A DNA stretch of 64,000 nucleotides from Planctomycetota bacterium. Its GTDB lineage: Bacteria > Planctomycetota > Phycisphaerae > Sedimentisphaerales > Anaerobacaceae. A program made the position numbers and the translations under genes. Position 1 is the first letter of the stretch. The number at the start of each line of letters is the position of its first letter. Shown here piece by piece: positions 13,178-41,260 of the stretch. The notes under the pieces are model-generated. The model ran no database searches, had not been told where the DNA came from, and saw nothing but the letters and a program-made list of their open reading frames with translations. The stretch is taken from assembly GCA_019456255.1 (NCBI GenBank), contig VRUG01000009.1:20037-84036 (forward strand), written 5' to 3'.

Positions 13178-13561
13178 ATGTCTTCAAATAAAAGGAATAA
13201 GTGGATGAGGGGGTTGAATAAGAAGTTAGTAGCTAGGTTAGTAGAACGTAACGTGGTTGTTGCTTTTGAGATTGATTATGGAGTTTCGGTTACCTGTTAC
13301 CTTAGGAGCAGAGTTGGTGGTAACTACACAATTGCTAGCGGATTTGCTATTTGTAGTACTACTGAAAAATTTGAAGAGTCTGCCGGGAAGAATAAAGCCG
13401 CTGGTCGTGCTTTAAAGGCTCTTATTAACCAAACTCACGGGGAAGTTGTACGAAGTCACTGGGATGACTTTCCTAAGAGTTGGAGTAAGCGTCAAATAGA
13501 TAGAGTTCTTAAATCTGGGACTTTATACAAAAGTTGGTATCGCGCAGGTACTGGTACATGA
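13178..13561 (+). CDS. hypothetical protein
   Basis: ATG 13178 after ggagga. 127 aa with a basic N-terminus. Confidence 0.5.
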   Translation: MSSNKRNKWMRGLNKKLVARLVERNVVVAFEIDYGVSVTCYLRSRVGGNYTIASGFAICSTTEKFEESAGKNKAAGRALKALINQTHGEVVRSHWDDFPKSWSKRQIDRVLKSGTLYKSWYRAGTGT

Positions 13562-14718
13562 TTCCTTTAGCAAAACCTAATATAAATACGCAGCGTGTTC
13601 TGCTTGACTTGATGACTGTCTTGACTTCTGGATGGTGGACTATGGGTGAATACACTAAGAATCTCGAAAAAGAGTTCGCAGAGTACGTTGGGGCTAAATA
13701 TGCTATTGCTACTAATAGTTGTTCTATGTCTTTGTTTTTGAGCCTGATAGTTTTAGATGTTAGAGATCATTATGTCTACACAAGCCCTTTAACGTTTTGT
13801 TCTACTATTAACTCTGCTATCCACGCTGGTGCTAGGGGAGTTTTCCTGGCTGACATCAACTTTGATACTCAATGTATGAACCCGAGTAACATTTTCCCTA
13901 AACCAGGTCCTGACGATGTTTTACTTCCAGTCCACTTTGCTGGCTTTCCTTGTAACATGAATGAGTTTGTTGAGTTAAGTAAAGAGACTGGAGCTAGGAT
14001 AGTAGAAGATTGTGCTCATGCGGTAGAGACTCAGTTTCATAGGCAACATGTCGGGACGTTTGGGGACATGGGATGTTACTCTTTTAATCCTACTAAAAAT
14101 ATTGCTGCTCCAGAGATGGGTATGATAGTTACGAACGATGAAGAGAAAGCAGAAAAGTTGAGGAGGTTACGTATTCATGGGATGGACGCTGATGCTTCAG
14201 AGAGGGTTAACAGTAATGGCACTTATAGTCTTGTTGACTGCGGTTATAAAGCTAATTGCACTGATTTTGAGGCGGTAGTCGCTTTGTCTCAACTAAGGAA
14301 CGTTGAAGCTAACTGGGAGGCTAGAAAGTACATTTGGAATCAATATAATCTTGCCTTTAAGAATTTCTGTAATCGTGAAATTTTTAATGGAATCTATCCT
14401 GGAATTAGACCATCTTTGAATCCTAATGTTGGGTACGTTCATGGATATCATCTGTACACAATCTGCCTTGGTAACCGTGACGACTTTATTGCTAAAATGC
14501 GGGAAAAACAGGTTTATTGTGGCATTCATTATAAGCCAGTTAATTTACATCCTTGTTATCGGAACTTGGGGTGGCACTCCGGAATGTTTAATAATGCAGA
14601 ATGGATTGGAAAACGTACTGTTAGTCTTCCTTTAGGACCAGGTATGACGACTAAAGATGTTAACCATGTCGTATCTGCTACTAAAGAACTTCTAGAGACT
14701 GGAGATTACTTATTATGA
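13558..14718 (+). CDS. DegT/DnrJ/EryC1-family sugar aminotransferase (PseC-like)
   Basis: MIPLAKPNI start, SFNPTKNI (PLP lysine), HYKP.. and LPL.P.MT. ATGA overlap with the upstream gene. Confidence 0.8.
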   Translation: MIPLAKPNINTQRVLLDLMTVLTSGWWTMGEYTKNLEKEFAEYVGAKYAIATNSCSMSLFLSLIVLDVRDHYVYTSPLTFCSTINSAIHAGARGVFLADINFDTQCMNPSNIFPKPGPDDVLLPVHFAGFPCNMNEFVELSKETGARIVEDCAHAVETQFHRQHVGTFGDMGCYSFNPTKNIAAPEMGMIVTNDEEKAEKLRRLRIHGMDADASERVNSNGTYSLVDCGYKANCTDFEAVVALSQLRNVEANWEARKYIWNQYNLAFKNFCNREIFNGIYPGIRPSLNPNVGYVHGYHLYTICLGNRDDFIAKMREKQVYCGIHYKPVNLHPCYRNLGWHSGMFNNAEWIGKRTVSLPLGPGMTTKDVNHVVSATKELLETGDYLL

Positions 14719-15242
14719 CTTTATATGTCGTGCTGAGACCCATTGATGAAGAAGACTTACTAACTCTATTTAAGTGGCGAAATGATCCACTTATTATGTC
14801 GAGGACTAGGCAGTGGAGGGAACTTTCTTGGAAAGAGCATAAGAGTTGGTTTGATAATTTAGATCTTGATAAAAACTTGATGTATGGAATTGTCTCTTCT
14901 AGGTCTGATATTAATGAGCATGCTGAACTGGTTGGGGTCTGCGGTTTGTGTTACATTGATCTTATCAACAGGAGCGCCGAAGTTAGTATTTACATTGGAG
15001 ATTCTTTCAGAAGGAGAACTGGAATTGGGAGTGAGGTATTGAGGTACTTGAAAATAAAAGCCTTTGACGTTTTAGGGCTTCATCGTATATATGCTGAAAT
15101 ATATGCTTTTAATGTGCCAGGTATTCGCTTATTTGAAGGATGTAGCTTTAAATGTGAAGCTACTATTTCAGACACTGTTTATATGGAGGGTGGTTGGTTT
15201 AGTAGTAAATTTTATACATACAAAGAGGATGATTGGCGATGA
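14715..15242 (+). CDS. GNAT N-acetyltransferase (PseH-like)
   Basis: LRPIDEEDLLTLFKWRNDP......EHKSWF matches the PseH-type N-terminus. GNAT core RRRTGIGSEVL. Confidence 0.65.
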   Translation: MTLYVVLRPIDEEDLLTLFKWRNDPLIMSRTRQWRELSWKEHKSWFDNLDLDKNLMYGIVSSRSDINEHAELVGVCGLCYIDLINRSAEVSIYIGDSFRRRTGIGSEVLRYLKIKAFDVLGLHRIYAEIYAFNVPGIRLFEGCSFKCEATISDTVYMEGGWFSSKFYTYKEDDWR

Positions 15243-16369
15243 CAACTAATAATTCGTTAGTCTTTGTTGAGGACTTTAGTGTAGAGGTTGAACCACTTCT
15301 AGCTGGTTTGGATGGGAATCTTCAACTTGTCGCTTTGTCTCCACTGGCTATGTACGAGTTAGATGAACTAGGGCTTACCTACAAGATTCCGGAAGACTAT
15401 TTAGTATGGGAAGAAACAGATAAGTATACTTCTAGTTTTGAGAACTGGCTTAACCTTGTAGAGTCTACTACTGCAAGGTTGTACCCAGAAGTTTCTTCTT
15501 TCTACATCCCAATGTCTACTTACTGTGTTGCTGTACTAAAAGGGATGGTTGACTCTTTTGTTAGAAAAGCAGTACAGTTTGAGCGTATTTTAAAAGAAGA
15601 GAATCCAAGTAAAATTTATTACTTCGCTAATAGAAATAAAAGTGGACAACCAAACGACGAACTCCTGTTTTTTCAGAGATCTATTTTTTATAGAATTGCG
15701 GAGTCTATTGAGGCTACTTTAATTCATGTTCCGGATGTTGGTATTAAGAAGGTTACTAGCTGGAGGGATATAGGATTTATAAGGAATGTTTACGATTGGT
15801 TTAGGTACTGTAGGTTTATCTGGTTCGGGAAGCCTAGTGGTTGGACGTATTTGTTTGCTAGTACAATGGCGACGTTAAGAGATATGAAGTTTCAATTTCG
15901 CAAGTGTAAGGTCGTTCCAATCGTTGATGTAATAGTAAATCGTACTGGTTCCTTTCACTGGGATGTAGATAGCTTATGTAGTAACTTATCTGATTTTTGC
16001 GGCGTTGATTTAGAGTTAGTTCAGGTAGTAGTAGGTCCACAGCTAGACCACTATCTGAAATGTGTTGTTCCAAAGATTGTTGAGCATTCCAAATTTTATT
16101 TTGAATATTTAAAGAAATTTCCACGCTATAAGACTGCTGTTATTTTTACGAGGCGTAATAGGCTTTACCAGTATGGGTTGTTAATCGCTGCCAAACAACT
16201 TGGTATACCTACGTATTACGTAAAGCATGGTTGGGAAGGGTATAACTCTTGGATTACAGATTGGAGAAGGCTAAAAGTTTACGATCACTTTGTTGCGAGC
16301 AGAGAAGGTGAGCGGAAATTTTTTAGAAAACACGCGGCTGAAAATGGATTTAAATGTGAAGTTCTTTAA
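15239..16369 (+). CDS. hypothetical protein in the glycan module
   Basis: 376 aa, ATGA-coupled, no confident motif. A possible GT-B-like or PseG-substitute role is speculation. Confidence 0.5.
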   Translation: MTTNNSLVFVEDFSVEVEPLLAGLDGNLQLVALSPLAMYELDELGLTYKIPEDYLVWEETDKYTSSFENWLNLVESTTARLYPEVSSFYIPMSTYCVAVLKGMVDSFVRKAVQFERILKEENPSKIYYFANRNKSGQPNDELLFFQRSIFYRIAESIEATLIHVPDVGIKKVTSWRDIGFIRNVYDWFRYCRFIWFGKPSGWTYLFASTMATLRDMKFQFRKCKVVPIVDVIVNRTGSFHWDVDSLCSNLSDFCGVDLELVQVVVGPQLDHYLKCVVPKIVEHSKFYFEYLKKFPRYKTAVIFTRRNRLYQYGLLIAAKQLGIPTYYVKHGWEGYNSWITDWRRLKVYDHFVASREGERKFFRKHAAENGFKCEVL

Positions 16370-16380
16370 AGGAGAATTTT

Positions 16381-17259
16381 ATGGCTTTAACTGGAAAGTG
16401 GACTGCTAGTAGTTTTAAGTACATTGATAAGAGTGGTAATAGTATTGTTGAAGATGAAAGTGGTAATGGTAATCATGCTCGTGGATTTAATGTAACTCCA
16501 GTCTATCTACATGATAGTAGGGGCAAGCCTTTAGGTAATAAAGAAAACGAGACTGAGCAGGCAATTGATACGGCTGCGTATTCTGTTGGTACTAGGGAGT
16601 CCTTTGAACAACGTAAATGGGAAGTTGATGATGAAACTATCGGGCTTGGTTTTAATGGCCACTCGTTTATGAAGATTTTGAATGATGATGCTATTAATCT
16701 TAGTAAGTTTACGTTGTGCGTTTCTGTAGGTCTTTACAATCCAAGTAAATCCCAATATATAATTGACAAACGTAATGGTCAATGGTACCGGAATTATTGT
16801 ATGCTTTACGCTTCGCCTAGTTTTCCACATTTAAGAGATGGAATGAATGATTCTAGTTGGTTTTTAGTTGACATTGGTGATGGTAGTTGGATGGACGATG
16901 ATTTTCATAATGGAGTTTTCTTTAGTATCGATAGAGTACCTTCTCTTACTATGTTTGATTTTGTTGCTACGTTTGATGGGAATTTTCTAGTTTTTTGGCT
17001 TGAAGACAAAGTTGTTGGTTTTAGAGAGAAATTAAAAATTGGAGACATTACTGGTAGTGGTGATTTAGTAGTTGGAGATGCTGGTTTTCCACATACTGTT
17101 GGTCAATGGCCTGTTGGGAACTCTCATACTTTATATGGAAAGATAGATAAAATTGAAATTTACGACACTGTCGAAAGGGTTGTAACGCAAGAGAGTTTAA
17201 TGATGGAGGACAGTATAACTATTGAACCTTTTAAGAAACCTAAAGATCGGGAGAATTAA
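16381..17259 (+). CDS. LamG/concanavalin-A-like lectin-fold protein (paralog 1)
   Basis: DESGNGNHARG near the N-terminus and YGKIDKIEIYD near the C-terminus (Laminin_G_3-type). Shares DKRNGQW.RNYC, F.VD.GDGS and G.L.VG blocks with the next gene. Confidence 0.6.
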   Translation: MALTGKWTASSFKYIDKSGNSIVEDESGNGNHARGFNVTPVYLHDSRGKPLGNKENETEQAIDTAAYSVGTRESFEQRKWEVDDETIGLGFNGHSFMKILNDDAINLSKFTLCVSVGLYNPSKSQYIIDKRNGQWYRNYCMLYASPSFPHLRDGMNDSSWFLVDIGDGSWMDDDFHNGVFFSIDRVPSLTMFDFVATFDGNFLVFWLEDKVVGFREKLKIGDITGSGDLVVGDAGFPHTVGQWPVGNSHTLYGKIDKIEIYDTVERVVTQESLMMEDSITIEPFKKPKDREN

Positions 17260-17814
17260 ATGGCAAGGATTATTGGTCGTACGGAATTTACTGGGAAAAA
17301 TTTTGTAATAATACCAAATTCAGATTCTCTAGATTTAGATAAGTGGTCAATTGTAGTAAAGTTTCAGTTGGGTAAGCTAGACAATGGGTGTTTTATTTTT
17401 GATAAACGTAATGGGCAGTGGCATCGCAACTACTGTTTTGGTTATATTACTCCTGAATGGTTTAAACACCACCCTACAGATATGACTGTTGGTTGTTATT
17501 TCTTTGTTGATGTAGGAGATGGTAGTCAAGTACAAGATGAATTTACTAATGGGGTTGGGGTAACTGTGCCATTTGTAAATCCTAGAGTTTCTTACGAGGC
17601 TTGTATGAAGTATGATGGAAAGGTCTTATCTCTTTCCGTCGATTATACTGGAGTAGTTGAGTTTAATAGTAGGGAATTGAATCTTGGGAGTGTAAAAGGT
17701 AATGGGAACTTAGTAATTGGGAGTATGGGAGAGCCCCATCTTGAAGCTTTTCCACAATATGGTTTGGGGAGGTTTACTGGAGTAATTGAGTCGTTAGACA
17801 TTTCAGAACTATAA
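17260..17814 (+). CDS. LamG/concanavalin-A-like lectin-fold protein (paralog 2)
   Basis: 184 aa, paralogous to 16381..17259 (DKRNGQWHRNYC, FFVDVGDGS, GNGNLVIGSMG, FTGVIESLDI). Confidence 0.6.
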   Translation: MARIIGRTEFTGKNFVIIPNSDSLDLDKWSIVVKFQLGKLDNGCFIFDKRNGQWHRNYCFGYITPEWFKHHPTDMTVGCYFFVDVGDGSQVQDEFTNGVGVTVPFVNPRVSYEACMKYDGKVLSLSVDYTGVVEFNSRELNLGSVKGNGNLVIGSMGEPHLEAFPQYGLGRFTGVIESLDISEL

Positions 17815-17825: not shown

Positions 17826-18059
17826 ATGAAGGGTAAGCCTGGTACATCTTGGGGTCCTGAATACCCAGTGAATTTGATGCGATCGTCTAGGGGTTGGTTA
17901 GCGGTCGACTATAGTAATAGACTACCTGTTATTGTGAAAGTGTTTAAACCAAAGAGTACCCTAGATGTAACTTTTATGATGGACGAGTTAACCTTATTAA
18001 ACTATGGTACTTTAGAGTTAGATCCGGAAGTTAGAGAGGAGATGGACAATGTGTCCTAG
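17826..18059 (+). CDS. hypothetical protein
   Basis: 77-aa ORF inside the operon-like array. Confidence 0.45.
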   Translation: MKGKPGTSWGPEYPVNLMRSSRGWLAVDYSNRLPVIVKVFKPKSTLDVTFMMDELTLLNYGTLELDPEVREEMDNVS

Positions 18060-18705
18060 TAAAATGATAGTAATAGTTGACTATAAAGCCGGCAATATTA
18101 AATCAGTTTTTAATGCTTTTAAAAAGATAGGGCAGGACCCTGTAGTAAGTAACTCTTACCAGGTACTTGAAGAGGCAGACGCTATAGTTATCCCTGGTGT
18201 TGGAGCGTTTGGTGAAGGAATGAAGTCCTTAAAAGAAGCAGGTCTTATTGAGTGTTTGAATGAGCAAGTTATAGGCAAGAAAAAACCGTTCCTTGGAATA
18301 TGTCTTGGTATGCAGTTGTTAGCCGACTGCAGTTTGGAAATGGGAGAACACGAAGGACTTGGCTGGATAGGTGGAACGGTTAAGTTAATAGAGACTGGTA
18401 GTACTGGCTTGAGGGTACCACATATTGGTTGGAATGATGTTGATTTTGAAAAAGGTAATGTTTTGTTTGATGGATTTGTTGAAGATCCAGTTTTCTACTT
18501 TGCTCATAGTTATTACTTTGAGGTAACGAATCGTGATTATGTTTCGTCATGTTGTACTCACGGAATTACATTTAGTAGTAGCGTCCAGAAAGACAACATT
18601 TTCGGAGTTCAATTTCATCCAGAAAAGAGCCAATCTATAGGGTTAAAGGTCTTAGAAAATTTTGTTAAAGAAGCGATTAATAGCAGTGGTACTTGTTCGG
18701 GATAG
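18049..18705 (+). CDS. hisH: glutamine amidotransferase subunit, HisH/WbuY-like
   Basis: IVIVDYKAGNIKSV, GICLGMQLL (catalytic Cys), HSYY, QFHPEKS. Confidence 0.85.
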   Translation: MCPSKMIVIVDYKAGNIKSVFNAFKKIGQDPVVSNSYQVLEEADAIVIPGVGAFGEGMKSLKEAGLIECLNEQVIGKKKPFLGICLGMQLLADCSLEMGEHEGLGWIGGTVKLIETGSTGLRVPHIGWNDVDFEKGNVLFDGFVEDPVFYFAHSYYFEVTNRDYVSSCCTHGITFSSSVQKDNIFGVQFHPEKSQSIGLKVLENFVKEAINSSGTCSG

Positions 18706-19426
18706 GCAAGTAGTTCAAAGTGTAAAGTTTAAGCACACTAACGTTATCCATTGGAATGTTGCTACTGCTGTTACTTTCTTTAATGAGTGGGCGGTTGATG
18801 AAATAATCTTGCTCGATGTTAGTAGAAATCGAGATGAATATGGTTTTTACTTCGTAATTGAGGACTTATCTACTAAGTGTTTTGTACCTTTAACCGTTGG
18901 TGGGTGGATAACAAATATCGAAGAAGCAAAGAGTAGGTTCGATCTAGGAGCAGATAAGATAGTTATTAACAGTGAAGCATTTCGGCGGCCAGAATTTATT
19001 AAAGAGTGTGCTAAGGCTTTTGGTAGCCAATGTGTAGTTGTTTCAATAGACGTTAAACGGTACCCGCATTGGAAGAGTGACGGCTATCTTGTTTGTACAG
19101 ATAGGGGTAGAGAACTTAGAATTTGGCATCCAGTTGACTGGGCTATGGAATGTCAAAAGCTTGGAGCGGGAGAAATATTTTTGAATTGCATTGATAATGA
19201 CGGGAACCGTAAAGGTTACAACTTAGGTTTGTTGGAAAGAGTTTCCAAGGCAGTAACTATTCCAGTAATAGCAATGGGTGGTGTATTGGAATGGAAACAT
19301 CTTGTCGATGGAATAGTAAAAGGTGGTGCTGACGCTGTTGCTGCTGCTAATATATTCCATTATAAAGAGCAAAGTACAAAGAAGGCCAAAAAGTATATGA
19401 GAGAGCATGGTATAGACGTCCGTTAG
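18662..19426 (+). CDS. hisF: imidazole-glycerol-phosphate-synthase cyclase-like subunit, HisF/WbuZ-like (copy 1)
   Basis: MLKKRLI..., GADKIVINS, GAGEI.LN.ID.DG...GY and GGADAVAAANIFHY. TTG start overlapping hisH. Confidence 0.8.
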   Translation: MLKKRLIAVVLVRDRQVVQSVKFKHTNVIHWNVATAVTFFNEWAVDEIILLDVSRNRDEYGFYFVIEDLSTKCFVPLTVGGWITNIEEAKSRFDLGADKIVINSEAFRRPEFIKECAKAFGSQCVVVSIDVKRYPHWKSDGYLVCTDRGRELRIWHPVDWAMECQKLGAGEIFLNCIDNDGNRKGYNLGLLERVSKAVTIPVIAMGGVLEWKHLVDGIVKGGADAVAAANIFHYKEQSTKKAKKYMREHGIDVR

Positions 19427-19438: not shown

Positions 19439-19603
19439 ATGGTCTGTAAAATCTGTTACAAGGAAAAAGCTACTTTACCAGATAGAAATAAACCGTGGTC
19501 AAAAAGAAAAGAGATTTGCTCAAAATGTCATCAAGACAGATTAAAGTCTGACTTAAAGGTTATTATTAAGGACAATATAAAGCGTAGTGTGAAGGAGAGC
19601 TAA
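19439..19603 (+). CDS. small CxxC...CxxC zinc-ribbon protein
   Basis: 54-aa ORF absent from the supplied track (MVCKICYKE...CSKCHQD). Its stop overlaps the next ATG (TAATG). Confidence 0.4.
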   Translation: MVCKICYKEKATLPDRNKPWSKRKEICSKCHQDRLKSDLKVIIKDNIKRSVKES

Positions 19604-20865
19604 TGAACTATTGTAAGAGGTGTTTATATCCAGAAAATGCAAAACCTACTATCATCTTTGATGAGCAGGGAGTATGTAGTGGTTGTCGTTACCACGAGTC
19701 AAGGCAGACCATAGACTGGTCTGAGAGGGAAAAACTACTACGTGAAATCCTTGCTGAATATAAACAGAAAGCAAAAGAAGCTGGTAACCCTTACGATTGT
19801 ATTATTCCAGTCAGCGGTGGAAAGGACAGCCATTATCAAGTTTACTTGATGAAAGTAGTCTACGGGATGAATCCCTTGCTAGTTACATACAACCATACTT
19901 TTAATACAAAGCTAGGTTTAAGGAACCTTAATAATATAGTGGAGAAGTTTGGAGTTGATTTGATTAGATTTACTGCTAATACAGAATCTGTTAGAAAGAT
20001 ATCTAGGTATATGGTGAAGACAGTAGGTGACATTACCTGGCATTATCATGCTGGTATTAGAACTTTTCCTTTTCAAGTGTCAGTCAAGTGGAACATTCCA
20101 CTTGTAATATGGGGGGAACACGGCTTCGCTGAAATTGTTGGGTTGGTTTCCCTTGAAGACATGGTAGAGTTTACTAAGTGGACAAGGCAAGAACATGATA
20201 TGAGGGGATACGAACCAGAAGACTTAATTAATGAGGAGAGTGGAATAACTAGTTTAGACGTAGCTCCCTACGTTTTTCCGACAGAAGAACAAATATCCGA
20301 GACTGGGATGAGAGGAATTTACTTGAGCAACTTTATGTACTGGGACGCTTTGGAACAAGCAAAGGAAATGGTCCACCGCTATGACTTTGGTTTACGAGAA
20401 GTTCCAAATGAAAGGTCTTTCGTTTTGCATGCCAAGAGTGATGACCACGCTAATGACGTTCATGACTACCTGAAGTATTTGAAGTTTGGATATGGAAGAG
20501 CGACTGACGATGCTACTACAGAAATAAGGCATGGGCGTATGACAAGAGAAGAAGGTACACAATTAGTTAGCGAGTACGACTCTGTGAGACCTTCTACTTT
20601 GCAATCGTATTTGGATTTTATGGGAATTACGGAACAGACTTTTCTAGACTGGGTTGAGCCTATGAGAGATTTGAATATATGGGAAAAACATAAGTCTACT
20701 GAGATGTGGGTGGTAAAGGATTCTATTGTACTAGATGATAGAGAAGTCGATGATGCTCGTCTGCTTCTAGTTCGTCCAGAAGACAGGACATTTGGTAGTA
20801 ATAATAAGCGGTTTTTTTGTAGGGATAAGTCTAAACATATAGAATATTCTCCTATTACTTTATAA
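19603..20865 (+). CDS. N-acetyl sugar amidotransferase (PP-loop; WbuX/WbpG/PseA-like), copy 1
   Basis: N-terminal CKRC...GVCSGC zinc knuckle, PVSGGKDSHYQ PP-loop, and FGYGRATDDA...IRHGRMTREEG. Confidence 0.8.
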   Translation: MNYCKRCLYPENAKPTIIFDEQGVCSGCRYHESRQTIDWSEREKLLREILAEYKQKAKEAGNPYDCIIPVSGGKDSHYQVYLMKVVYGMNPLLVTYNHTFNTKLGLRNLNNIVEKFGVDLIRFTANTESVRKISRYMVKTVGDITWHYHAGIRTFPFQVSVKWNIPLVIWGEHGFAEIVGLVSLEDMVEFTKWTRQEHDMRGYEPEDLINEESGITSLDVAPYVFPTEEQISETGMRGIYLSNFMYWDALEQAKEMVHRYDFGLREVPNERSFVLHAKSDDHANDVHDYLKYLKFGYGRATDDATTEIRHGRMTREEGTQLVSEYDSVRPSTLQSYLDFMGITEQTFLDWVEPMRDLNIWEKHKSTEMWVVKDSIVLDDREVDDARLLLVRPEDRTFGSNNKRFFCRDKSKHIEYSPITL

Positions 20866-29129: not shown

Positions 29130-29130
29130 G

Positions 29131-33160: not shown

Positions 33161-33349
33161 ATGCCTTTGTTTTATGTGCAAGACGATGACAGGCCAATGT
33201 ATGTAAACAGTGAGAGTTTTGGGACTGCTTTAGAGTCGTGGAAAAAGTTTATAGCTACGGAGAATGGTTGTAGTCCGGATGGCGTAGAACTTCCATTAGG
33301 AATAAAGTTTATAGCTCCTAGCGACGAGGTAATATGGGATGTTGAGTAA
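33161..33349 (+). CDS. hypothetical protein
   Basis: 62 aa after aaggaga. Confidence 0.4.
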   Translation: MPLFYVQDDDRPMYVNSESFGTALESWKKFIATENGCSPDGVELPLGIKFIAPSDEVIWDVE

Positions 33350-35252
33350 AGTATCTGTTATAATTCCACTCTACAACTACGAGAGGTACATAGGTCAAGC
33401 AATAGACAGTGTATTATCTCAGACTTATACTAACTGGGAGATTATTGTAGTAGACGACTTTTCGTCTGATGGTGGTTTGGTAGTAGTAGGTAGATATGAA
33501 GATAGTTTAAAAGAGAAGTTACGAGTAATAGAGAATTTTGAAAACTTAGGTGTTAGTAAGAGTAGAAACTTGGGTTTTAGAATAAGTACTGGCGACTATA
33601 TAGCCTATCTAGATGCAGACGACTACTGGGAACCCACTAAGCTAGAGAAACAAGTACTGGCGATGGAAGAGCAAGACGCTGGCGTAGTACATACTGGAGT
33701 TAATACTATAATTAGCCAAGAAACTGCGACATGGGTAGGGAAACCTGGTAGAGGAATTTTTGGAACTAGTCCGGCAAAAGGCTACTGGGATTCGTTTTGG
33801 AATGAAAAGTTGTTAGCACAGTTACGTAAGCGTACTCACTTTGGTATCTTGTCTGATGGTGATCCTATTTGTTCATCTTCTATCATGGTTAAAAGAGAGG
33901 TAGTTGAAGCTGTTGGTGGGTTTGATGAAGACTTGTTATATCAGCATGAAGATTGGGTATTCTTACTTAAATGTTCGTACTACTACGTTTTTTATATGTT
34001 GAAGGATCGACTTACTAACTATCGTATTCATAAAGAAGGCTACACTGCTAAAGCACTACTTACTCCTGGTGGTGATTGGAGCGCAGACGTTGCTCTGGGT
34101 CAAGCAAGGGATAGATGTTTTAGTTTTGTGAAGGGAAGGGGGCAATCTTTATCTTATAAAGAATTTAATGCTAATCCTACGTTACGCCAAAAAATAAAGC
34201 GGCATTTACTTCTCCCTGGAAAAGTAAAAGCTCACCTTATAGTAAGAGCAAAGAACTTCTACCACTACTACGAGGACTGGCTACCTTCTAGGAAAAACGA
34301 AAGTAGTGTAGACTTAATGATACTGTTCCTTACTGACAAATGCAATTTGTCATGTAAGGCTTGTTTCTACAAGGGTAAGTTGCATACGTATGGTGATATG
34401 GATATTGTCAACGTAAGATCTATTCATCGTAGTGTTACTCCAAACAACGTACTACTAACGGGTGGCGAACCTTTCCTATATGATAGAATACAAGACGCTA
34501 TTAATATGTTTTCTGAAAAGAGCAATGTTTGGATAAATACTAACGGTATGCGACCTTTAGCAGTAAAGGGCATGATGGCTAAGATTTTAGTCGCTAAGCA
34601 TAAAACTATTACTGTATCTGTATCTTTAGATGGATTCGAGAAAACGCATAATGAAATGAGGGGGAATGACAAGTCATATAGTAGGGCAATGGATACTTTA
34701 AGGGTTTTATTGTCATTTAAACCTACAGATAAAGGTTTAAACGTATGTATCAATACTTTGATAACACCAGGAACTATGGACAAGTTAGTTGACTTCGCTA
34801 AAGAGATGGCGTACGCTTTCCCTAGTCTAGATTATCACAACTTTGAGGTTGAAAGGTCTTTTAGAGGTTTTAAGTACCACGTTTCCCTTGATGGAATGTA
34901 TAAAGGGCTTCTAGAAGTTATAAAGAAGAACTACTTTTCTTATTATTTACTAACTAAGAGAAGATTTAACGTCCAGTATCTTAATTCTACTATAGGTAAA
35001 CCTTGGGACTTTCCTTGTTTGGCTGGTAAAAAGGCATTTACTATTTACCCGGACGGTAAGTTGGTAGCGTGTGAGATGAGAGATACAGTGACTGACTTAG
35101 CGTATTACAACTACGACGTTACTAAAGCTCTAAATGGGTCATCTATGAAGCAAGAGTTAAAGTATATAAAAAGGGACAAATGTTATTGTGCTCATGGTTG
35201 TTGGGTAGTTACTAGTATGTGTGACCATTTTAGCAAAGTGGGGTGGAGATAA
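33339..35252 (+). CDS. fusion protein: N-terminal GT2 glycosyltransferase + C-terminal radical SAM (SPASM-like) domain
   Basis: VSVIIPLYNYERYI..AIDSVLSQTY.NWEIIVVDDFSSDG and LDADDYW (GT-A, DxD), then LTDKCNLSCKACFY (CxxxCxxC at 34341-34364), GGEP, and C-terminal Cys clusters (CLAGK...ACE, CYCAHGCW). Confidence 0.75.
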   Translation: MLSKVSVIIPLYNYERYIGQAIDSVLSQTYTNWEIIVVDDFSSDGGLVVVGRYEDSLKEKLRVIENFENLGVSKSRNLGFRISTGDYIAYLDADDYWEPTKLEKQVLAMEEQDAGVVHTGVNTIISQETATWVGKPGRGIFGTSPAKGYWDSFWNEKLLAQLRKRTHFGILSDGDPICSSSIMVKREVVEAVGGFDEDLLYQHEDWVFLLKCSYYYVFYMLKDRLTNYRIHKEGYTAKALLTPGGDWSADVALGQARDRCFSFVKGRGQSLSYKEFNANPTLRQKIKRHLLLPGKVKAHLIVRAKNFYHYYEDWLPSRKNESSVDLMILFLTDKCNLSCKACFYKGKLHTYGDMDIVNVRSIHRSVTPNNVLLTGGEPFLYDRIQDAINMFSEKSNVWINTNGMRPLAVKGMMAKILVAKHKTITVSVSLDGFEKTHNEMRGNDKSYSRAMDTLRVLLSFKPTDKGLNVCINTLITPGTMDKLVDFAKEMAYAFPSLDYHNFEVERSFRGFKYHVSLDGMYKGLLEVIKKNYFSYYLLTKRRFNVQYLNSTIGKPWDFPCLAGKKAFTIYPDGKLVACEMRDTVTDLAYYNYDVTKALNGSSMKQELKYIKRDKCYCAHGCWVVTSMCDHFSKVGWR

Positions 35253-35818: not shown

Positions 35819-35991
35819 AAAAGAAAGTAGAACAGTTTAGAGAGTGGCTTAAGTCTGAATTGGTAGCTTATGAGGCTGGAAAGTACGTGATCGCTGAAGA
35901 TAATGTTGGTCAAGTAGTTATAGAGGATGTCATAAAGAAGTTTAATGAGGTTTTCGTTAATGAAAAAGAAACTACATATACACAGCGATAA
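35815..35991 (+). CDS. hypothetical protein
   Basis: 58-aa ORF absent from the supplied track, ATGA-coupled. Confidence 0.3.
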   Translation: MKKKVEQFREWLKSELVAYEAGKYVIAEDNVGQVVIEDVIKKFNEVFVNEKETTYTQR

Positions 35992-37201
35992 TAGTAGTTG
36001 GGCTGGTTGCGAAAACATGCCAGGTATCTTTTTACAGAACAAAGTACTAAACAACGAGTTTGACTTAACGTTTAGTTATCGATATAGTAAAGAGTATGTG
36101 AAGGGTTTTAACGAATGGGTGACAGGTATCTTTTGCAAGTCAGCAAACGAAAGAATAGATAGTAGTAAACGTGACGTTTTTCCACTTCGCCTCCCTATCT
36201 CTTTCTTATACAAAATCAGGCTTTATTTTAGACCAGTTATGGCACTGGGTTATTTCTTTATGCTTTATGAGGGGTTCGTTTTGTGCAAACTGATAGGCCA
36301 ATTGAGGCCCGATGTGTTGCACATAAATAACGGAGGGTATCCTGGTGCTACTAGCTGTAATAGTGCTGCTATTGCTGGTCGCCTTATGGGAGTCCCAAAG
36401 ATAACATACATGATTAACTCTACAACTAAAAATAGATGGTGGGAAAGACCAATGACTTGGTTGGTAAAGAAGTGTGTAACGAAATTTATTACTGCATCTA
36501 AGTATTGTAGAGATCAAAGTAAGTTTTTGTGGGTTTCAATAATCGTTAAAGAAAACGCGTCGAATGGCAAAAACTGGGTAACTATAAACTGGGAGGTCAT
36601 ACCAAATACTGTCCTTTCAAGGGAATGTACTTCTATTTGGCTTTTACGAGGGGGACTAGATAAAGCAATAAAGAAAAGTGACATTATGTTTCTTTGTGTT
36701 GGTAACTTTGAAGAAAGGAAAGGCTTCAAGGACGCGATTGAGGCTTTCGGGAAAATAAAATGTGATAACCCAAGAGTTCTTGTTATTGGTGGGTCTGGCC
36801 CAGAAGGTTCTAATTTAAAAAAGTTAGCAGAAGCGTCTACTAGTCTTGTTCTGGTAGAAGAAAACGATGACTTTGACACTTATAGTTTAATTAAGTCGTG
36901 TGACGTGTTGTTAGTTCCAAGTATTAGAGATGAAGATTTTCCTAATGTGATCTTAATAGGGTTAATGATGGGTAAGCCAATCGTAGCGTCTAATATCTGT
37001 GGAATTCCGGAACTGTTCAAATCAGATTTTACTTATCTCATTAATCCAGGAGACGTTTCAAGGTTAAAGGTTCTTGTTTCTAGGCTACTTCTGGAGGCTG
37101 GTGAACGTAAGCGTCTTGGTGCTGCTAATAAACAACTTTTTCTTGATCAGTACTCTACTGACAAGATTATTGAGAGGTATATCGATCTATGGACCCAATA
37201 G
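35960..37201 (+). CDS. GT4-family (GT-B) glycosyltransferase
   Basis: MKKKLHI start. ERKGF.DAIEAF and EDFPNVILIGLMMGKPIVASNICGIPE fit the E..G....EA...G.PV..s..gG..E motif. Confidence 0.75.
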   Translation: MKKKLHIHSDNSSWAGCENMPGIFLQNKVLNNEFDLTFSYRYSKEYVKGFNEWVTGIFCKSANERIDSSKRDVFPLRLPISFLYKIRLYFRPVMALGYFFMLYEGFVLCKLIGQLRPDVLHINNGGYPGATSCNSAAIAGRLMGVPKITYMINSTTKNRWWERPMTWLVKKCVTKFITASKYCRDQSKFLWVSIIVKENASNGKNWVTINWEVIPNTVLSRECTSIWLLRGGLDKAIKKSDIMFLCVGNFEERKGFKDAIEAFGKIKCDNPRVLVIGGSGPEGSNLKKLAEASTSLVLVEENDDFDTYSLIKSCDVLLVPSIRDEDFPNVILIGLMMGKPIVASNICGIPELFKSDFTYLINPGDVSRLKVLVSRLLLEAGERKRLGAANKQLFLDQYSTDKIIERYIDLWTQ

Positions 37202-38016
37202 TATCTGTTATAATACCAACGTATAATAGGGTAGACGATTTAGTTATAGCAATAGAGTCTGTTCAAATGCAGACTTTTAAGGACTTAGAGATTATTGTTG
37301 TTGATGATGGGTCTACCGATAACACTAAACAAGTTGTAGCGTCGCATACAATCTGTGATGGCAGAATTAGATACATTGATATGGGAAGGAATAGTGGGTG
37401 CCCAGTTCATCCTAGAAATACAGGTTGTGCTAATGCTAAGGGGAAGTATCTTGCATTTTTAGATAGCGACGACTTGTGGGAGCCAGAGAAGTTAAAATTG
37501 CAAGTTTGGTACTTAGAAGTAACTGGAGAAGTCTTTTCTTACCACAATATGCTAGTAAAGTATGTTGACGTTGGTAGGTCTGAGTTGTGGAGTAAGATGT
37601 CAACTTGTTTTTCTGGTGAAGTTTTTGAAGTTTTACTTAGAAAGAACTTCGTCCCAACTTCTTCTGTGTTAATAAGAAGTAGTGTATACAATGAGTTTGG
37701 TCCCATGGACTGGAAGTTTAAAATTAGTCACGACTGGGACTTGTGGTTGAAGGTTGCTTCTAAGTACCAGTTCCATTACATACCAGATAATCTTGGTGGA
37801 ACTTTGTCTATTCATTATGGCTCTGTTATAGGTGATGTTCATAAGCGTAGGGAAGAGTCTAGAAAGATTGTTAGGAAGTGGAAAAGTGAAGTGTCGCGAA
37901 GATGGTATTATAAGATAATGTTATATTACTACTTGATGGAAGTGTTTGATGTGTTACCAAAATTCCTTCAAGGTTGGGTTAGGTCCTGGTGGTATGAGCA
38001 AGAGAGGTACAAATGA
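37189..38016 (+). CDS. GT2-family glycosyltransferase
   Basis: VSVIIPTYNRVDDL..AIESVQMQTFKDLEIIVVDDGSTDNT, LDSDDLW. Confidence 0.8.
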   Translation: MDPIVSVIIPTYNRVDDLVIAIESVQMQTFKDLEIIVVDDGSTDNTKQVVASHTICDGRIRYIDMGRNSGCPVHPRNTGCANAKGKYLAFLDSDDLWEPEKLKLQVWYLEVTGEVFSYHNMLVKYVDVGRSELWSKMSTCFSGEVFEVLLRKNFVPTSSVLIRSSVYNEFGPMDWKFKISHDWDLWLKVASKYQFHYIPDNLGGTLSIHYGSVIGDVHKRREESRKIVRKWKSEVSRRWYYKIMLYYYLMEVFDVLPKFLQGWVRSWWYEQERYK

Positions 38017-38140: not shown

Positions 38141-38815
38141 ATGTTTCTAGTAAAACCGAGTTTTGAAATTTTGTCAATTATGGGGTACGATCCTGCACAT
38201 GAGATGTTACCTTGTGATACACCTATTGCTTTAATAGAGCATGCTGGGAGAACTTGTTACAAGTCAGAAGATCAAATAACCGCTACTTCAGCTATTAACT
38301 TTGTTAAGATGATTTTAAAAAGAGGCCATGAATCTGTTCTTGAGCACTCTGCGGTTACAGTCAAGTTTGTTATTGATAGAGGGGTCAGCCATGAGTGGGT
38401 CAGACATAGGCTTTGTGCCTTCAGCCAGGAGAGTACAAGGTACTGTAATTATAAAGGAGGGGTTACTTTTGTTATTCCACCTTGGGTTGATATTGACCCG
38501 GGAGATTATGACACTCCAGACGATCTTGGGGGAGAAGATCAAGCAAACTATGACTGGGCTCAACTTGTTTATAGTACAGAAGAAACTTATATGAATTTAC
38601 TCCATTTAGGTTGGTCCCCACAGCAAGCCAGATCAGTTCTTCCAAACTCCCTTAAGACCGAACTGGTAGTCACGGCCAACTTTCGTGAGTGGCGGCATAT
38701 CTTCAAACTCCGTACAGCCAAAGCAGCCCATCCACAGATGCAGGAGATAATGATACCAACACTTAAAGAATTCCAGAAAAGAGTGCCAGTAATATTTGAT
38801 GGTATAGGAGAGTAA
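38141..38815 (+). CDS. thyX: flavin-dependent thymidylate synthase (canonical ThyX)
   Basis: HESVLEH and RHRLCAFSQESTRY (38402-38443, an intact ThyX motif), plus FREWRHIFKLR....H.Q.QEI. Confidence 0.85.
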   Translation: MFLVKPSFEILSIMGYDPAHEMLPCDTPIALIEHAGRTCYKSEDQITATSAINFVKMILKRGHESVLEHSAVTVKFVIDRGVSHEWVRHRLCAFSQESTRYCNYKGGVTFVIPPWVDIDPGDYDTPDDLGGEDQANYDWAQLVYSTEETYMNLLHLGWSPQQARSVLPNSLKTELVVTANFREWRHIFKLRTAKAAHPQMQEIMIPTLKEFQKRVPVIFDGIGE

Positions 38816-38816
38816 A

Positions 38817-39587
38817 GTGGCAAAGTGTGAGATAATAGCAGAAATTGGCATTAACCATGGTGGGGACCTGGAATTAGCTAGGAATATGATTGATAGTGCG
38901 AAGGGCTGTGGTGCCGATGCAGTAAAGTTTCAAGTTTACGATCCTAAGCTATTGTTAAATCCAGACTCTTTTAGTCTTAGTAATTGGCAGTCTATCTTAA
39001 GATCGGAGTTGAACTTTGGAGATGTTGCAGTATTGTTCGAGCACTGCAGAAAGGCTGGTATAGAATTCTTGGCCTCTGCTTTTGATTTGAAGAGACTTGA
39101 TTGGTTAGAAGAGTTAGGAGTGAAAAGACATAAGATAGCAAGTCGTAGTATTTACGACAAAGAGTTAGTTGAAGCAGTTAAGAAAACTGGGAAGCCATAC
39201 TTAGTAAGTATGGGTATGATTGAGGAGATGCATAAGATGGAGCCCATCTACGGGACGTGGAGCAGGTTAGCCGGTACGGGTGGAAACTGTACGTTTATGT
39301 ACTGTGTATCTGAATATCCTACGTCTTTAAGTAAGATCGACTTTCACAGTTCTATTTTTAAACGAGTAAATCCTCTTAGCGTAGAGAGGTTTGATGGTTT
39401 TTCCGATCATACTGTAGGTACTACTACCGCTAAAACTGCTATTGTTCTTGGAGCAAAAGTGGTAGAGAAACACTTTACTCTTAATAAGCATGCTGATGGT
39501 CCTGACCATTGTTGTTCTGCTGACATAAATGAACTATGGAATATTTGTGATTTTCGTAATGACTTTAATAAACTAGACTGGAGGTAA
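38817..39587 (+). CDS. NeuB-family nonulosonic acid synthase (PseI/NeuB/LegI-like), lacking the C-terminal SAF domain
   Basis: IAEIGINHGGDLELA..MID.AK..GADAVKFQ, FSDHTVG, VVEKHFTLNK...GPDH..S. Only 256 aa. GTG start. Confidence 0.75.
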   Translation: MAKCEIIAEIGINHGGDLELARNMIDSAKGCGADAVKFQVYDPKLLLNPDSFSLSNWQSILRSELNFGDVAVLFEHCRKAGIEFLASAFDLKRLDWLEELGVKRHKIASRSIYDKELVEAVKKTGKPYLVSMGMIEEMHKMEPIYGTWSRLAGTGGNCTFMYCVSEYPTSLSKIDFHSSIFKRVNPLSVERFDGFSDHTVGTTTAKTAIVLGAKVVEKHFTLNKHADGPDHCCSADINELWNICDFRNDFNKLDWR

Positions 39588-39592: not shown

Positions 39593-39679
39593 GGGAGTAG
39601 AGCCGGTTTTAGCGCAGAACCGGTGGGTCCACATGGTAGTGGAGTACAACCCGAAGAGTTCGAATCTCTCCTACTCCCA
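39593..39679 (+). tRNA. tRNA-like element (acceptor stem + canonical T-arm; anticodon not assignable by eye)
   Basis: GGGAGTAG (39593-39600) pairs with CTACTCCC (39671-39678). The T-arm is AGAG-TTCGAAT-CTCT (39655-39669). There are two internal hairpins: 39602-39624 (loop TAGCGCA) and 39628-39643 (loop ATGGTA). It lies in a 104-nt intergenic gap. Confidence 0.45.
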
Positions 39680-39691
39680 ACCTTTAAATTT

Positions 39692-41260
39692 ATGTTAGAC
39701 TTTCTATTCATAACAAGTCCGACTAATGCACGTAATCCGCATCCGCCTTATTACTTTCTCTACTTATCTGCTTATTTGAGAGAGAAGGGTCTTAGGGTTA
39801 AGATTGTAGACGTAAAGGGAGGTGATAGGCCTCATGAACTTGAAGTACACTACTCAACGATTAGTCAAGAACTTAGATGTAACCCATCCCGTTTTGTTGG
39901 GTTGGCTGCTTTTCATAGTGATTATCCTGCTATTATGCGTCTTGGGGGTATTGTCAAACTTAATCAACCAGATACAACTTTACTTGTGGGAAACGCGCAT
40001 AGTACGATTAGTCCGCAAGACTTCATTTTTAAAGAGTCGAATTTCGATGTAGCTGTATTAGGAGAAGGAGAAGAGACTTGTTATGATTTATGGTGTTGGT
40101 ACGACAAACCTGTAACTAAACGGTTAGACGAAGTTGCTGGTATTGCTTACATGTCTTACGTACTAAAGGAGCCAGAATATGTTAAAACAAAAAAACGAAG
40201 AGTCATGGATATGGGAGATTTACCAAGTCCTAGCTATGATCTCGTTGATATGGATTATTATCTTTATCCTCAGAAGCTTATTATTCGGCGTATCTACACA
40301 TCTATGGTCTGTATTTTTGCCGGTAGAGGTTGCCCTTTTGATTGCGACTTTTGTGCTGCGAATAACGTGTGGCAGGCAAATGAAGGAAAAGCGTGTAGAT
40401 TGCGACCAGTAGGAAATGTCATAAACGAGATTGTGCAATTGAAGGAATTTTATAGCATAGATTTTTTCTACTTGTTTGACGACATGTTTGGTATGTCAAA
40501 GAAGTGGATGAATGGGTGGTTTGAATGGAAGAGTAAGACTGAAACTTATTCGTCAAGAAAAAGTATAGTTGAAATACCTTACGCAACTCAAACGAGGGCA
40601 GACATATGTTCAGAGGAAATGATCAGGGGACTAAAAGCCACAGGATGCATACAACTAGATATAGGAGTGGAATCGGGGAGCCAACAACTTTTGGATCAAG
40701 TAAACAAAGGAATAACACTAGATCAAATTCGTCACGTATTCTCGTGGTGCAAGAAATACAAGTTGCGGTCTTTCGCTACAATGCTCTTGAATTTGCCTGG
40801 CGAGACATCGAAAGATTTAGAATCTACACACCAATTTTTGAAAGAAATCAAACCATCGGCTGGCGTCATATTCGGCGTCACCACTCCTTATCCAGGAACC
40901 AAAATTTACGAAGATCAGTTCAAGCCAAAGCTTACCACAGACGAATATCACCTTTTAATAGGAAACCGGCTAAATCCATTGGAGAGATTCAGATTAAGCG
41001 ACCATAAGTTAGATTTGGAGGTAATATGGGACAGATGGAACAGGGAGTTCAAAGCTACACCAATGTTCGAAAGGATGTGGGCTGCAAAACCTTATCAATC
41101 ACAATATTGGCAGGCTGTATTACGGTCAGAGAGATGTTCTCAATATGTGAAGTGTTGGGGAAAAGACTTGGTGAAGACTTTCTTACTGTGGTGGATCCAC
41201 AAACTGGGAATGTATCGCTTATTGAAACGAATTCAATATAGGAGACGAAAAAATGAATGA
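39692..41260 (+). CDS. B12-binding-domain radical SAM enzyme (class B), copy 2
   Basis: MLDFLFITSP... start, an N-terminal B12-binding-like domain, GRGCPFDCDFC (CxxxCxxC), GVESGS. The track's 39623 start reads through the tRNA-like element and is rejected. Confidence 0.8.
   Translation: MLDFLFITSPTNARNPHPPYYFLYLSAYLREKGLRVKIVDVKGGDRPHELEVHYSTISQELRCNPSRFVGLAAFHSDYPAIMRLGGIVKLNQPDTTLLVGNAHSTISPQDFIFKESNFDVAVLGEGEETCYDLWCWYDKPVTKRLDEVAGIAYMSYVLKEPEYVKTKKRRVMDMGDLPSPSYDLVDMDYYLYPQKLIIRRIYTSMVCIFAGRGCPFDCDFCAANNVWQANEGKACRLRPVGNVINEIVQLKEFYSIDFFYLFDDMFGMSKKWMNGWFEWKSKTETYSSRKSIVEIPYATQTRADICSEEMIRGLKATGCIQLDIGVESGSQQLLDQVNKGITLDQIRHVFSWCKKYKLRSFATMLLNLPGETSKDLESTHQFLKEIKPSAGVIFGVTTPYPGTKIYEDQFKPKLTTDEYHLLIGNRLNPLERFRLSDHKLDLEVIWDRWNREFKATPMFERMWAAKPYQSQYWQAVLRSERCSQYVKCWGKDLVKTFLLWWIHKLGMYRLLKRIQYRRRKNE

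Follow-up and report, generated by a model that had tools for sequence, protein, structure and literature searches.

A putative pseudaminic-type sugar island with acetamidino chemistry in an uncultivated tailed phage

The stretch of DNA analysed here (64 kb of contig VRUG01000009.1, hereafter the window) carries, between about 13.5 and 41.3 kb, a block of sugar genes that very probably encodes a phage-borne, cytoplasmic pathway for a cytidine monophosphate (CMP)-activated, heavily tailored pseudaminic-type sugar, together with the means of building a glycan. The fuller reading, in which an amidino-decorated pseudaminic-type sugar is incorporated into a glycan that reaches the host envelope, is a tentative proposal, close to evenly balanced in our judgement. 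An earlier reading of the same DNA (the original prediction) had described a phage glycan island around a pseudaminic-type pathway with acetamidino chemistry, and this core was upheld by profile hidden Markov models (HMMs) and by a syntenic relative. Genes are named below by their start coordinates.

Families in the block were assigned with Pfam and NCBIfam profile HMMs, the NCBIfam equivalog cut-offs serving as reference, and every enzyme family assignment rests on such profiles, with very low E-values (Table 1). The PseC, PseH, PseB, cytidylyltransferase and NeuB homologues forecast for the interval at 13.5-41.3 kb agreed with the profiles, and all of them lie on the plus strand. The entry enzyme, 24720, is effectively PseB as judged from its sequence: it covered the TIGR03589 model nearly end to end and scored 406.5 bits, 1.25 bits under the equivalog cut-off of 407.75, the runner-up family FnlA standing at 252 bits. 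The top NCBIfam matches of the PseC-like aminotransferase and the PseH-like N-acetyltransferase were PseC and PseH, at 240 and 77 bits, both below the respective cut-offs of 423.5 and 93.1; the former is 55% identical to its counterpart on contig L035, introduced below. The CMP-nonulosonate synthetase was above the CTP_transf_3 threshold (40 against 22.6 bits), and its top NCBIfam match, PseF, was below the cut-off (73 against 206 bits).

The nonulosonate synthase 38817 is only 256 aa long. Its matches stop at model position ~249 of the 327-329 positions of the NeuB and PseI models, some 80 aa short, and the scores were below the cut-offs for both NeuB_NnaB (183.5 against 399.65 bits) and PseI (158 against 340 bits). 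PseI comprises a NeuB barrel and a C-terminal domain; 38817 ends where the barrel ends, and the part absent from it is presumably where the SAF domain is located. The best PDB match was a 290-aa NeuB (6ncs), and the homologue on contig L002 is 52% identical. The protein is best described at family level only, as a NeuB-type synthase.

A second phage is represented by contigs L035 and L002, which overlap at 100% identity. From UvsX onward its genes follow the same order as in the window, namely PseC, PseH, a 15233 homologue and a 16381/17260 homologue, then one WbuX-like gene, a 24266 homologue, PseB and PseF, and finally a B12-binding radical SAM gene, PIG-L, RfbB, GT4, GT2, NeuB and a second B12-binding radical SAM gene (GT, glycosyltransferase). 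Its proteins are mostly 41-64% identical to those of the window, with 29% for the WbuX-like gene and for the match to 16381. The HMM evidence, together with the same enzymes at 41-64% identity in a syntenic relative, supports the reading of the core pathway.

The HisH, HisF and PP-loop amidotransferase set of the original prediction was also found, and it proved larger than described. The module is doubled, one HisH standing alongside two WbuX and two WbuZ copies, and for both WbuZ copies WbuZ was the top match, though under the cut-off. The two WbuX proteins are 37% identical and the two WbuZ proteins 42%. RfbB, PIG-L, three radical SAM enzymes (two with B12-binding domains), GT4, GT2 and the fusion of GT2 to a radical SAM domain were likewise recognised by HMM with their motifs intact: both WbuX copies contain SGGxDS, each of the three radical SAM enzymes contains CxxxCxxC, and HisH retains its catalytic Cys and His-Glu. 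The first of the B12-binding enzymes, 26867, which is 55% identical in the relative, has homologues in bacterial clusters of the nonulosonic acid type and probably acts in sugar tailoring by C-methylation.

On the strength of these families, PseB would convert UDP-GlcNAc to a 4-keto-6-deoxy intermediate, which the PseC-like enzyme would aminate and the PseH-like N-acetyltransferase would then acetylate. After loss of UDP, the short NeuB would condense the hexose with phosphoenolpyruvate, and the PseF-like enzyme would yield the CMP-sugar. Two WbuX/WbuZ pairs, both fed by the single HisH, would turn N-acetyl into acetamidino groups. Other steps are proposed more loosely. UDP might be removed (the PseG step) by a host enzyme or by a phage GT-B protein; PIG-L and the two B12-binding radical SAM enzymes might tailor the sugar further, through a free amine or re-acylation and through C-methylation; and RfbB might supply a 6-deoxyhexose. 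An oligosaccharide could then be assembled by GT4, GT2 and the GT2-radical SAM protein, and the nonulosonate could be added by a GT-B enzyme split between 15233 and 24266.

Table 1. Predicted features of the sugar block, with window coordinates and the match or linkage supporting each assignment
Feature	Position	Strand	Evidence
PseB, inverting UDP-GlcNAc 4,6-dehydratase, pathway entry	24720-25709	+	Polysacc_synt_2 3.2e-92
PseC-like pyridoxal phosphate (PLP) aminotransferase (DegT family)	13534-14718	+	Pfam DegT 2.4e-85
PseH-like GNAT N-acetyltransferase	14715-15242	+	Acetyltransf_3 2.8e-18
Short NeuB-family nonulosonate synthase	38817-39587	+	Pfam NeuB 1.6e-49, 169 bits
CMP-nonulosonate synthetase, PseF-like	25699-26403	+	CTP_transf_3 4.4e-10
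HisH-type glutamine amidotransferase (ammonia donor, WbuY role)	18049-18705	+	TIGR01855 236 bits, cut-off 105 (above)
WbuZ/HisF-like cyclase-fold subunit, copy 1	18662-19426	+	TIGR03572 250 bits, cut-off 299.7 (below)
WbuX N-acetyl sugar amidotransferase (PP-loop), copy 1	19603-20865	+	TIGR03573 343 bits, cut-off 203 (above)
WbuX N-acetyl sugar amidotransferase, copy 2	20876-21997	+	TIGR03573 388 bits, cut-off 203 (above)
WbuZ/HisF-like subunit, copy 2	21991-22752	+	TIGR03572 269 bits, cut-off 299.7 (below)
B12-binding radical SAM enzyme 1	26867-28198	+	Pfam B12-binding and Radical_SAM
B12-binding radical SAM enzyme 2	39623-41260	+	Pfam B12-binding and Radical_SAM; 64% identity in L002
PIG-L family de-N-acetylase	28990-29859	+	Pfam PIG-L 2.2e-20; 59% identity in relative
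RfbB-type dTDP-glucose 4,6-dehydratase, 6-deoxyhexose entry	31861-32874	+	TIGR01181 348 bits, cut-off 365
GT2 fused to radical SAM/SPASM	33339-35252	+	Glycos_transf_2 1.7e-36 and Radical_SAM; SPASM-type NCBIfam matches
GT4 (GT-B) glycosyltransferase	35945-37201	+	Glycos_transf_1 5.6e-25; 50% identity in L002
GT2 glycosyltransferase	37189-38016	+	Glycos_transf_2 5.2e-32; 63% identity in L002
Candidate N-terminal part of split GT-B enzyme	15233-16369	+	Profile linkage to ~620-aa family
Candidate C-terminal part of split GT-B enzyme, 153 aa	24266-24727	+	blastp to ~620-aa family
Canonical ThyX	38141-38815	+	124.7 bits, ThyX equivalog cut-off 87.9 (above)
DUF4915/TIGR03032-like protein	23031-24269	+	Pfam DUF4915 35.5 bits, cut-off 35; no L035 homologue
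Conserved protein, paralogue of next feature	16381-17259	+	Homologue in L035
Paralogue of 16381-17259	17260-17814	+	43% identity to L035 homologue
Small conserved protein	28063-28482	+	45% identity in L035/L002

The island and its phage setting

The original prediction took the 28 kb as a single pathway block. The block is indeed compact and co-directional, with 29 of its 45 gene junctions overlapping and another 11 showing gaps of 0-15 nt, but this co-directionality is not peculiar to it, as the whole window is equally so. It is also a mosaic, made of a conserved core and of accessory genes that come and go: the L035/L002 phage lacks HisH, both HisF-like genes, the DUF4915 and DUF1643 genes, the GT2-radical SAM fusion and thyX. 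Since the core is retained in that phage while the accessory genes differ, the region is better read as a mosaic than as one 28-kb pathway. The share of the window given to sugar genes had been overestimated as well; the 19 sugar-related open reading frames (ORFs) sum to 19.2 kb, or 30% of the window rather than more than 40%, and the remainder of the span consists of small ORFs and unrelated genes. In L035, an SLT lytic-transglycosylase gene and an RNA ligase gene lie between PseF and the first B12-binding radical SAM gene (15995-17368), which indicates that the island tolerates unrelated insertions.

A more distant phage, L003, shares a terminase segment at 55% identity, and some 10 kb 5' of its terminase the corresponding site is occupied by another sugar module. 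This module encodes a carbamoyltransferase, a CMP-transferase, a DegT aminotransferase, a GT2, a class-III aminotransferase, an oxidoreductase, an Asn-synthase-type amidotransferase, a short NeuB and a methyltransferase. The differing module at the same site suggests that this lineage carries a variable island for decorated nonulosonates. A NUMOD3 homing-endonuclease-type gene lies immediately 5' of the short NeuB of L003 (8833-9816) and is a possible driver of module exchange at the locus.

Several ORFs within the block are less readily connected with sugars. The DUF1643 protein at 28454-28987 (4.5e-45; phrog_3230) is probably an unrelated insertion. The small conserved ORF 28063-28482, for which no family match was found in Pfam or NCBIfam, shares, in the ORF list, 136 nt with the end of the B12-binding radical SAM gene, and it therefore probably starts farther 3' than annotated. 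The paralogues 16381 and 17260 (37% identical) had been taken for two LamG lectin-fold proteins, a call that gained no support from the searches: no Pfam match up to E=5 and no PDB match by sequence or profile was obtained, and the LamG-like motif pattern is visible by eye only.

The thyX gene within the block had been cited in support of phage DNA as the acceptor of the sugar. Its description as canonical stands, and its score above the ThyX equivalog cut-off points to an ordinary thymidylate synthase that is no part of the sugar module. It is a lineage-variable insertion, GT2 and NeuB abutting in the relative where the window has thyX, and it had been the one basis for proposing a DNA acceptor. 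That the sugars decorate modified bases of the phage DNA is highly improbable. Diverse glycans are known on glycosylated phage DNA (bioRxiv 10.1101/2023.12.21.572611), and the window holds two ThyX-family genes, one in the block and the other (4042-4923) divergent and without the RHR residues. Nevertheless, the gene in the block is canonical and absent from the relative, and no hydroxymethylase, 5-methylcytosine methyltransferase/TET or base kinase that could provide a handle on the base was found in the scan, which covered ~40 ORFs out of the 100 in the window, chiefly larger ones, and left out most of the small ones. We also know of no report of a CMP-sugar as donor in DNA modification. DNA was rejected as the leading acceptor on account of the canonical, lineage-variable thyX and the absence of a base-handle enzyme from the scanned ORFs. 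The divergent ThyX-family protein (293 aa), encoded next to the ribonucleotide reductase, reached 52.7 bits where the ThyX cut-off is 87.9, and it shares 30% identity with 38141; other residues stand in place of RHR in its ThyX motif (..LLRYEFCTFNMQSQKYR..), and its substrate or function may have changed.

The gene content and layout point to the DNA of a large, uncultivated tailed phage (Caudoviricetes). A PHROG-type profile scan recognised a ribonucleotide reductase, a UvsX-like recombinase and an SbcCD-like nuclease pair 5' of the sugar block, and on its 3' side lie a terminase-like protein, a portal, an 1842-aa head-morphogenesis fusion protein and an HK97-type capsid protein. The PHROG matches were 3.7e-33 for the portal, 5.4e-52 for head morphogenesis and 6.7e-16 for capsid/protease families, and the capsid homologue of the related contig L132 bears the Pfam domain Phage_capsid_4. 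The first ~380 residues of the 1842-aa protein (52523-58051) form a head-morphogenesis domain of the Mu-F/SPP1-gp7 type, to which the L132 homologue adds an ADP-ribosyl exotoxin domain. The 1842-aa protein may be an effector-bearing component of the head, either ejected or internal. For neither the sugar block nor the structural half did megablast find a match among GenBank phages; the phage is therefore not one already known, and its portal has only ~23-25% identity to any deposited phage portal.

Identical proteins have been deposited as hypothetical proteins of a 'Planctomycetes bacterium' metagenome-assembled genome (MAG), on a 111-kb contig with the locus tags FVQ80_06715 and FVQ80_06720, and assemblies of run SRR8799001 contain the sequence too. 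Another long contig of the lineage is the 112-kb JGI contig Ga0364475_12241472. The Planctomycetes label is a binning result and does not prove the host. No tRNA genes that might have indicated the host were found, the capsid protein had no relatives among species-representative bacterial and archaeal genomes, and the nearest cellular homologues of PseB, 50-58% identical, come from scattered phyla.

It is very improbable that the block is instead a polysaccharide island of cellular origin, its contig being chimeric or wrongly classified. The deposition within a Planctomycetes MAG would fit such an origin, as would three unusual genes of cellular type at the left edge of the phage region, which encode a 686-aa aldehyde:ferredoxin oxidoreductase, a class-V aminotransferase and a UbiD-family decarboxylase (282-1349 and 1850-3283 in the window, and L040 315-2375 upstream of it), none of which had a PHROG match. 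Against this, all coding ORFs of the window are on the plus strand and compactly arranged, and the block is flanked by phage replication genes to one side and by packaging and head genes to the other; independently assembled sequences from other samples, as well as IMG/VR contigs, show this order again. The G+C content (~39%) and the steadily positive GC skew show no break across the block.

The PseG step and a split GT-B enzyme

The original prediction saw no obvious PseG, and none has emerged since. No block ORF matched PseG in NCBIfam or Pfam (Pfam up to E=5 for the unknown ORFs), a genuine PseG (L123) had no blastp match among all the window ORFs, and hhalign of the 15233 family against PseG gave a probability below 1%. 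A PseG hidden among the unknown ORFs was therefore rejected, Pfam, NCBIfam, PDB sequence and profile searches, hhalign and blastp all being negative.

Two leads had escaped the original prediction: a split GT-B enzyme, and a ligase gene past the end of the window. The first concerns 15233, which comes directly after PseH in both phages and has only six close homologues among 5.8 billion proteins, and 24266, just upstream of PseB, which is 56% identical in L035. A profile built from 15233 and five homologues finds proteins of ~620 aa, whose first ~400 aa match, while 24266 matches by blastp residues ~440-560 in 48 members of the same family. Within a single ORF of the metagenomic cluster L126 the two matches are co-linear. 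As the two proteins match successive parts of the same family, they are predicted to be the halves of a split version of it, lying ~8 kb apart in the phage.

The structural evidence is carried by a full-length relative (P0032), whose model, at a predicted local distance difference test (pLDDT) score of 86, shows the two-Rossmann GT-B fold. Its Foldseek matches were BshA (4.8e-7), the hydrolysing UDP-GlcNAc 2-epimerase NeuC (1.5e-5) and a polysialyltransferase (4e-4), as well as other UDP-GlcNAc 2-epimerases and MurG. The model of 15233 alone (pLDDT 78) gave only weak two-Rossmann matches (E >= 0.007). No match was found for 15233 or 24266 in the copy of Pfam scanned, and the profile of the ~620-aa family against PDB sequences yielded only noise. 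Members of this family show weak matches to GT4-type, DUF6716 and TagF-like Pfam models, and the profile-linked relatives P0048 and P0049 have weak precomputed matches to PF27859 (LIC12162).

The gene associations of the family point towards nonulosonates. One member (P0080) is fused to the CMP-sugar synthetase domain CTP_transf_3, and the member in L126 is flanked by a CTP_transf_3-type CMP-transferase gene, a DegT gene and four B12-binding radical SAM genes. A 'transferase' of the LIC12162 family, the nonulosonate transferase proposed there, comes after neuABC in Herbaspirillum (PMC6679464), and TagB-like GT-B proteins are the genetically demonstrated pseudaminic/legionaminic acid transferases of Tannerella (PMC5420450). 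By gene association, 15233 and 24266 together are thus most likely a candidate nonulosonate transferase; alternatively, they may be a UDP-releasing hydrolase that stands in for PseG.

The acceptor of the glycan

The second lead is a 675-aa protein encoded ~370-2400 bp past the window end in the same assembly, and so in the same phage (L039 2406-4433). It has a precomputed match to PF04932 (Wzy_C), ~10-12 hydrophobic segments in residues 1-445 and a soluble C-terminal extension of ~230 aa. The hydrophilic loop after residue 335 contains HNDYLEHLVEFGVVG (H-N-x9-G-x-x-G), which we take to fit the WaaL-type ligase motif H[NSQ]x9GxxG. Ligases of the WaaL/PglL type move lipid-linked glycans to lipid A-core or to proteins outside the cytoplasm, and the 675-aa protein is a candidate WaaL/PglL-like ligase. 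About 19 homologues were found, 40-59% identical and all of similar length, and in every contig examined (L041, L132 and L135) the ligase gene follows the capsid gene and two small serine/threonine-rich proteins and precedes the tail genes.

Two further genes near the ligase encode real LamG and secreted components of the phage, both outside the sugar block: a 109-aa protein with a clear signal peptide downstream of the ligase (L039 5064-5393) and a 266-aa Laminin_G_3 protein (L039 6261-7061). After the latter comes a possible tail fibre, more than 630 aa long.

The ligase is the only concrete lead to the acceptor and favours host envelope remodelling. In the sugar block a scan for hydrophobic segments found no protein with more than one, so no Wzx flippase, Wzy polymerase or initiating transferase is encoded there, and all of its glycosyltransferases and pathway enzymes are soluble. 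Taken with the conserved WaaL/PglL-type ligase in the same phage, this suggests a glycan that would be assembled on a lipid carrier of the host and flipped by the host's own machinery, to be ligated in the periplasm either to the lipopolysaccharide (LPS) core or to a surface or periplasmic protein of the host envelope. The infected cell surface might thereby be remodelled, for instance excluding superinfecting phages or stopping progeny from re-adsorbing. That a lipid-linked glycan is ligated to a host envelope molecule in this way is possible, though short of probable.

Several points weigh against the reading as a whole. The structure of the product is inferred, and PseC, PseH, PseF and PseI all scored below their NCBIfam equivalog cut-offs, so that substrate details may differ from canonical Pse5Ac7Ac. 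PseG, a flippase and an initiating phosphoglycosyl transferase were not found in ~73 kb of the phage. The sugar block and the ligase are linked only by their shared genome; no other long contig with both came up among the matches listed for a NeuB alignment, nor in a terminase scan, which gave three short loci. The position of the ligase inside the structural module is odd for a host-remodelling gene. Furthermore, no integrase was seen within the window, and for a phage that appears to be lytic the benefit of remodelling a cell about to die is less obvious.

Such a phage would gain more durably from decorated particles, and the main rival acceptor, though rather unlikely, is the virion itself. 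The soluble phage glycosyltransferases would then attach the nonulosonate glycan to structural proteins in the cytoplasm, where virions assemble, and give the particle a bacterial-like sugar coat. Giant viruses with complete nucleotide-sugar pathways use them for glycans of their particles, which is consistent with this scheme. Candidate acceptors in the window are a family of three paralogues of the head module, before the capsid gene, and the proteins with 26-27% Ser+Thr directly after it. The paralogues, each of ~175 aa, stand in tandem between a 468-aa head protein and the capsid gene (60272-61918) and had no family match; 60272 and 60842 are 77% identical, each is 32% identical to 61397, and L041 and L132 have two copies. 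On the other hand, over 20 kb separate the glycosyltransferases from the structural genes, which is not how mycobacteriophages arrange them, serine/threonine-rich beta-type proteins are common in phage heads without glycosylation, and the conserved multi-pass ligase would be left unexplained. A more specific form, with particles coated in a self-made, doubly amidino-modified and radical-SAM-tailored pseudaminic-type glycan to which the split GT-B enzyme adds the sugar, is unlikely.

The functions not found in the phage (PseG, flippase and initiating transferase) imply reliance on the host, and it is conceivable, if improbable, that the phage supplies only the CMP-sugar and its tailoring. Host transferases would then use the product in the host's own nonulosonic-acid glycosylation of, for example, S-layer, flagellin or LPS, and no phage-specific glycoconjugate would be formed. 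The deposition of the contig in a Planctomycetes MAG, although a binning result, agrees with this, as some Planctomycetes bear nonulosonic acids on their S-layer glycans (bioRxiv 10.1101/2020.12.03.409086); in Acinetobacter, prophage-borne enzymes alter the pseudaminic acid of the host capsule (PMC12053666). Four glycosyltransferase-type proteins and a ligase of its own, however, exceed what mere supply would need, and the distance of PseB from its closest cellular homologues in scattered phyla gives no sign of recent capture from a host. Ligation onto the host envelope remains the preferred, if tentative, reading.

Significance and comparison with known systems

Nonulosonic acids such as pseudaminic acid are bacterial surface signatures that serve in motility, immune evasion and phage resistance, and they are also phage receptors. 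If the proposal is right, a self-made, tailored nonulosonate would bring viruses directly into the arms race over surface glycans, whether on the cell or on the particle; were it a coat on the virion, this would be the first tailed phage shown with its own 'bacterial sialic acid' there. The island gathers two B12-binding radical SAM enzymes, a GT2-radical SAM/SPASM fusion, duplicated amidotransferases and the putative split GT-B enzyme in one place, and so offers a compact, co-evolving set of candidates in which new modifications of nonulosonates, and a new family of enzymes transferring them, may be sought. A practical limit is that phage and host are both uncultivated.

Such gene sets appear to be rare in viruses. 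A tblastn survey of 50,697 GenBank phage records found NeuB in three (none of them an isolated phage), PseB-like proteins in six and WbuX in none, and no sequenced isolated phage has this gene set. Among IMG/VR sequences, at least 33 viral contigs carry NeuB relatives, and some of these also carry PseB or a CMP-transferase. Nothing was found in the literature searched on a phage-encoded pseudaminic or nonulosonic pathway or on a virion bearing such a sugar, which is not proof of absence.

The closest biochemical parallel is the CMP-pseudaminic acid pathway of Campylobacter and Helicobacter (PseB, PseC, PseH, PseG, PseI and PseF). The phage shares with it the entry enzyme, PseB standing at the equivalog threshold, and the order of the chemistry, from aminotransferase and N-acetyltransferase to PEP-condensing synthase and cytidylyltransferase. 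It likewise has a WbuX/PseA-family amidotransferase with HisH/HisF-like partners, comparable to the PseA-type formation of acetamidino groups in these bacteria. Unlike them, it lacks PseG, has a NeuB of 256 aa and divergent PseC, PseH and PseF, duplicates the amidotransferase module and adds PIG-L and two B12-binding radical SAM enzymes, all of this encoded by a virus. With the WbuXYZ clusters (E. coli O145 type O-antigen; archaeal AglXYZ) it has in common WbuX above the cut-off, HisF-like WbuZ and HisH, but two diverged WbuX/WbuZ pairs are combined with one HisH in the phage, whereas the relative has one WbuX-like gene and no HisH or HisF in its block.

Radical SAM enzymes are associated with similar genes in two non-viral settings. 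The plasmid pDCAR1 of Solidesulfovibrio carbinolicus carries pseB, pseC, pseF, a short NeuB-family protein and radical SAM enzymes related to the B12-binding pair of the window, with no annotated pseG within the two stretches inspected. The metagenomic cluster L126 combines the CMP-transferase, DegT and four B12-binding radical SAM genes with an unsplit homologue of 15233 and 24266; an oxidoreductase and an ABC exporter are additionally encoded there (1-16455), and the cluster suggests that an undescribed, radical-SAM-rich pathway for a nonulosonate or related sugar exists in cells. Both are cellular or plasmid-borne, have methyltransferases, transketolase-like genes and an ABC exporter without counterparts in the phage, and show only 23-52% identity to the phage proteins. 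Hsc_4298 of Herbaspirillum and Tanf_01245 of Tannerella forsythia are, like the putative split enzyme, soluble GT-B proteins associated with CMP-nonulosonate genes; the phage enzyme differs in being divided between two genes, and its kinship with them runs through profile matches and weak Pfam matches on intermediates.

Among viruses, mycobacteriophages and giant viruses encode glycosyltransferases, and giant viruses also have complete rare-sugar pathways. In relation to such virion glycosylation, a nonulosonic pathway of this kind is without counterpart in GenBank phage records. Viral genes that alter the surface glycan are also known from seroconverting temperate phages, from EpaA/EpaB of Acinetobacter (PMC12053666) and from the LPS gene sets of cyanophages. 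A phage-encoded membrane enzyme of the O-antigen machinery is shared with these, here the WaaL/PglL-like ligase, but they add one or two tailoring steps to a host glycan, whereas the present phage has a near-whole pathway and four transferase-type proteins. The enzymes all belong to known families; what is new is their viral setting, their combination and the candidate split transferase.

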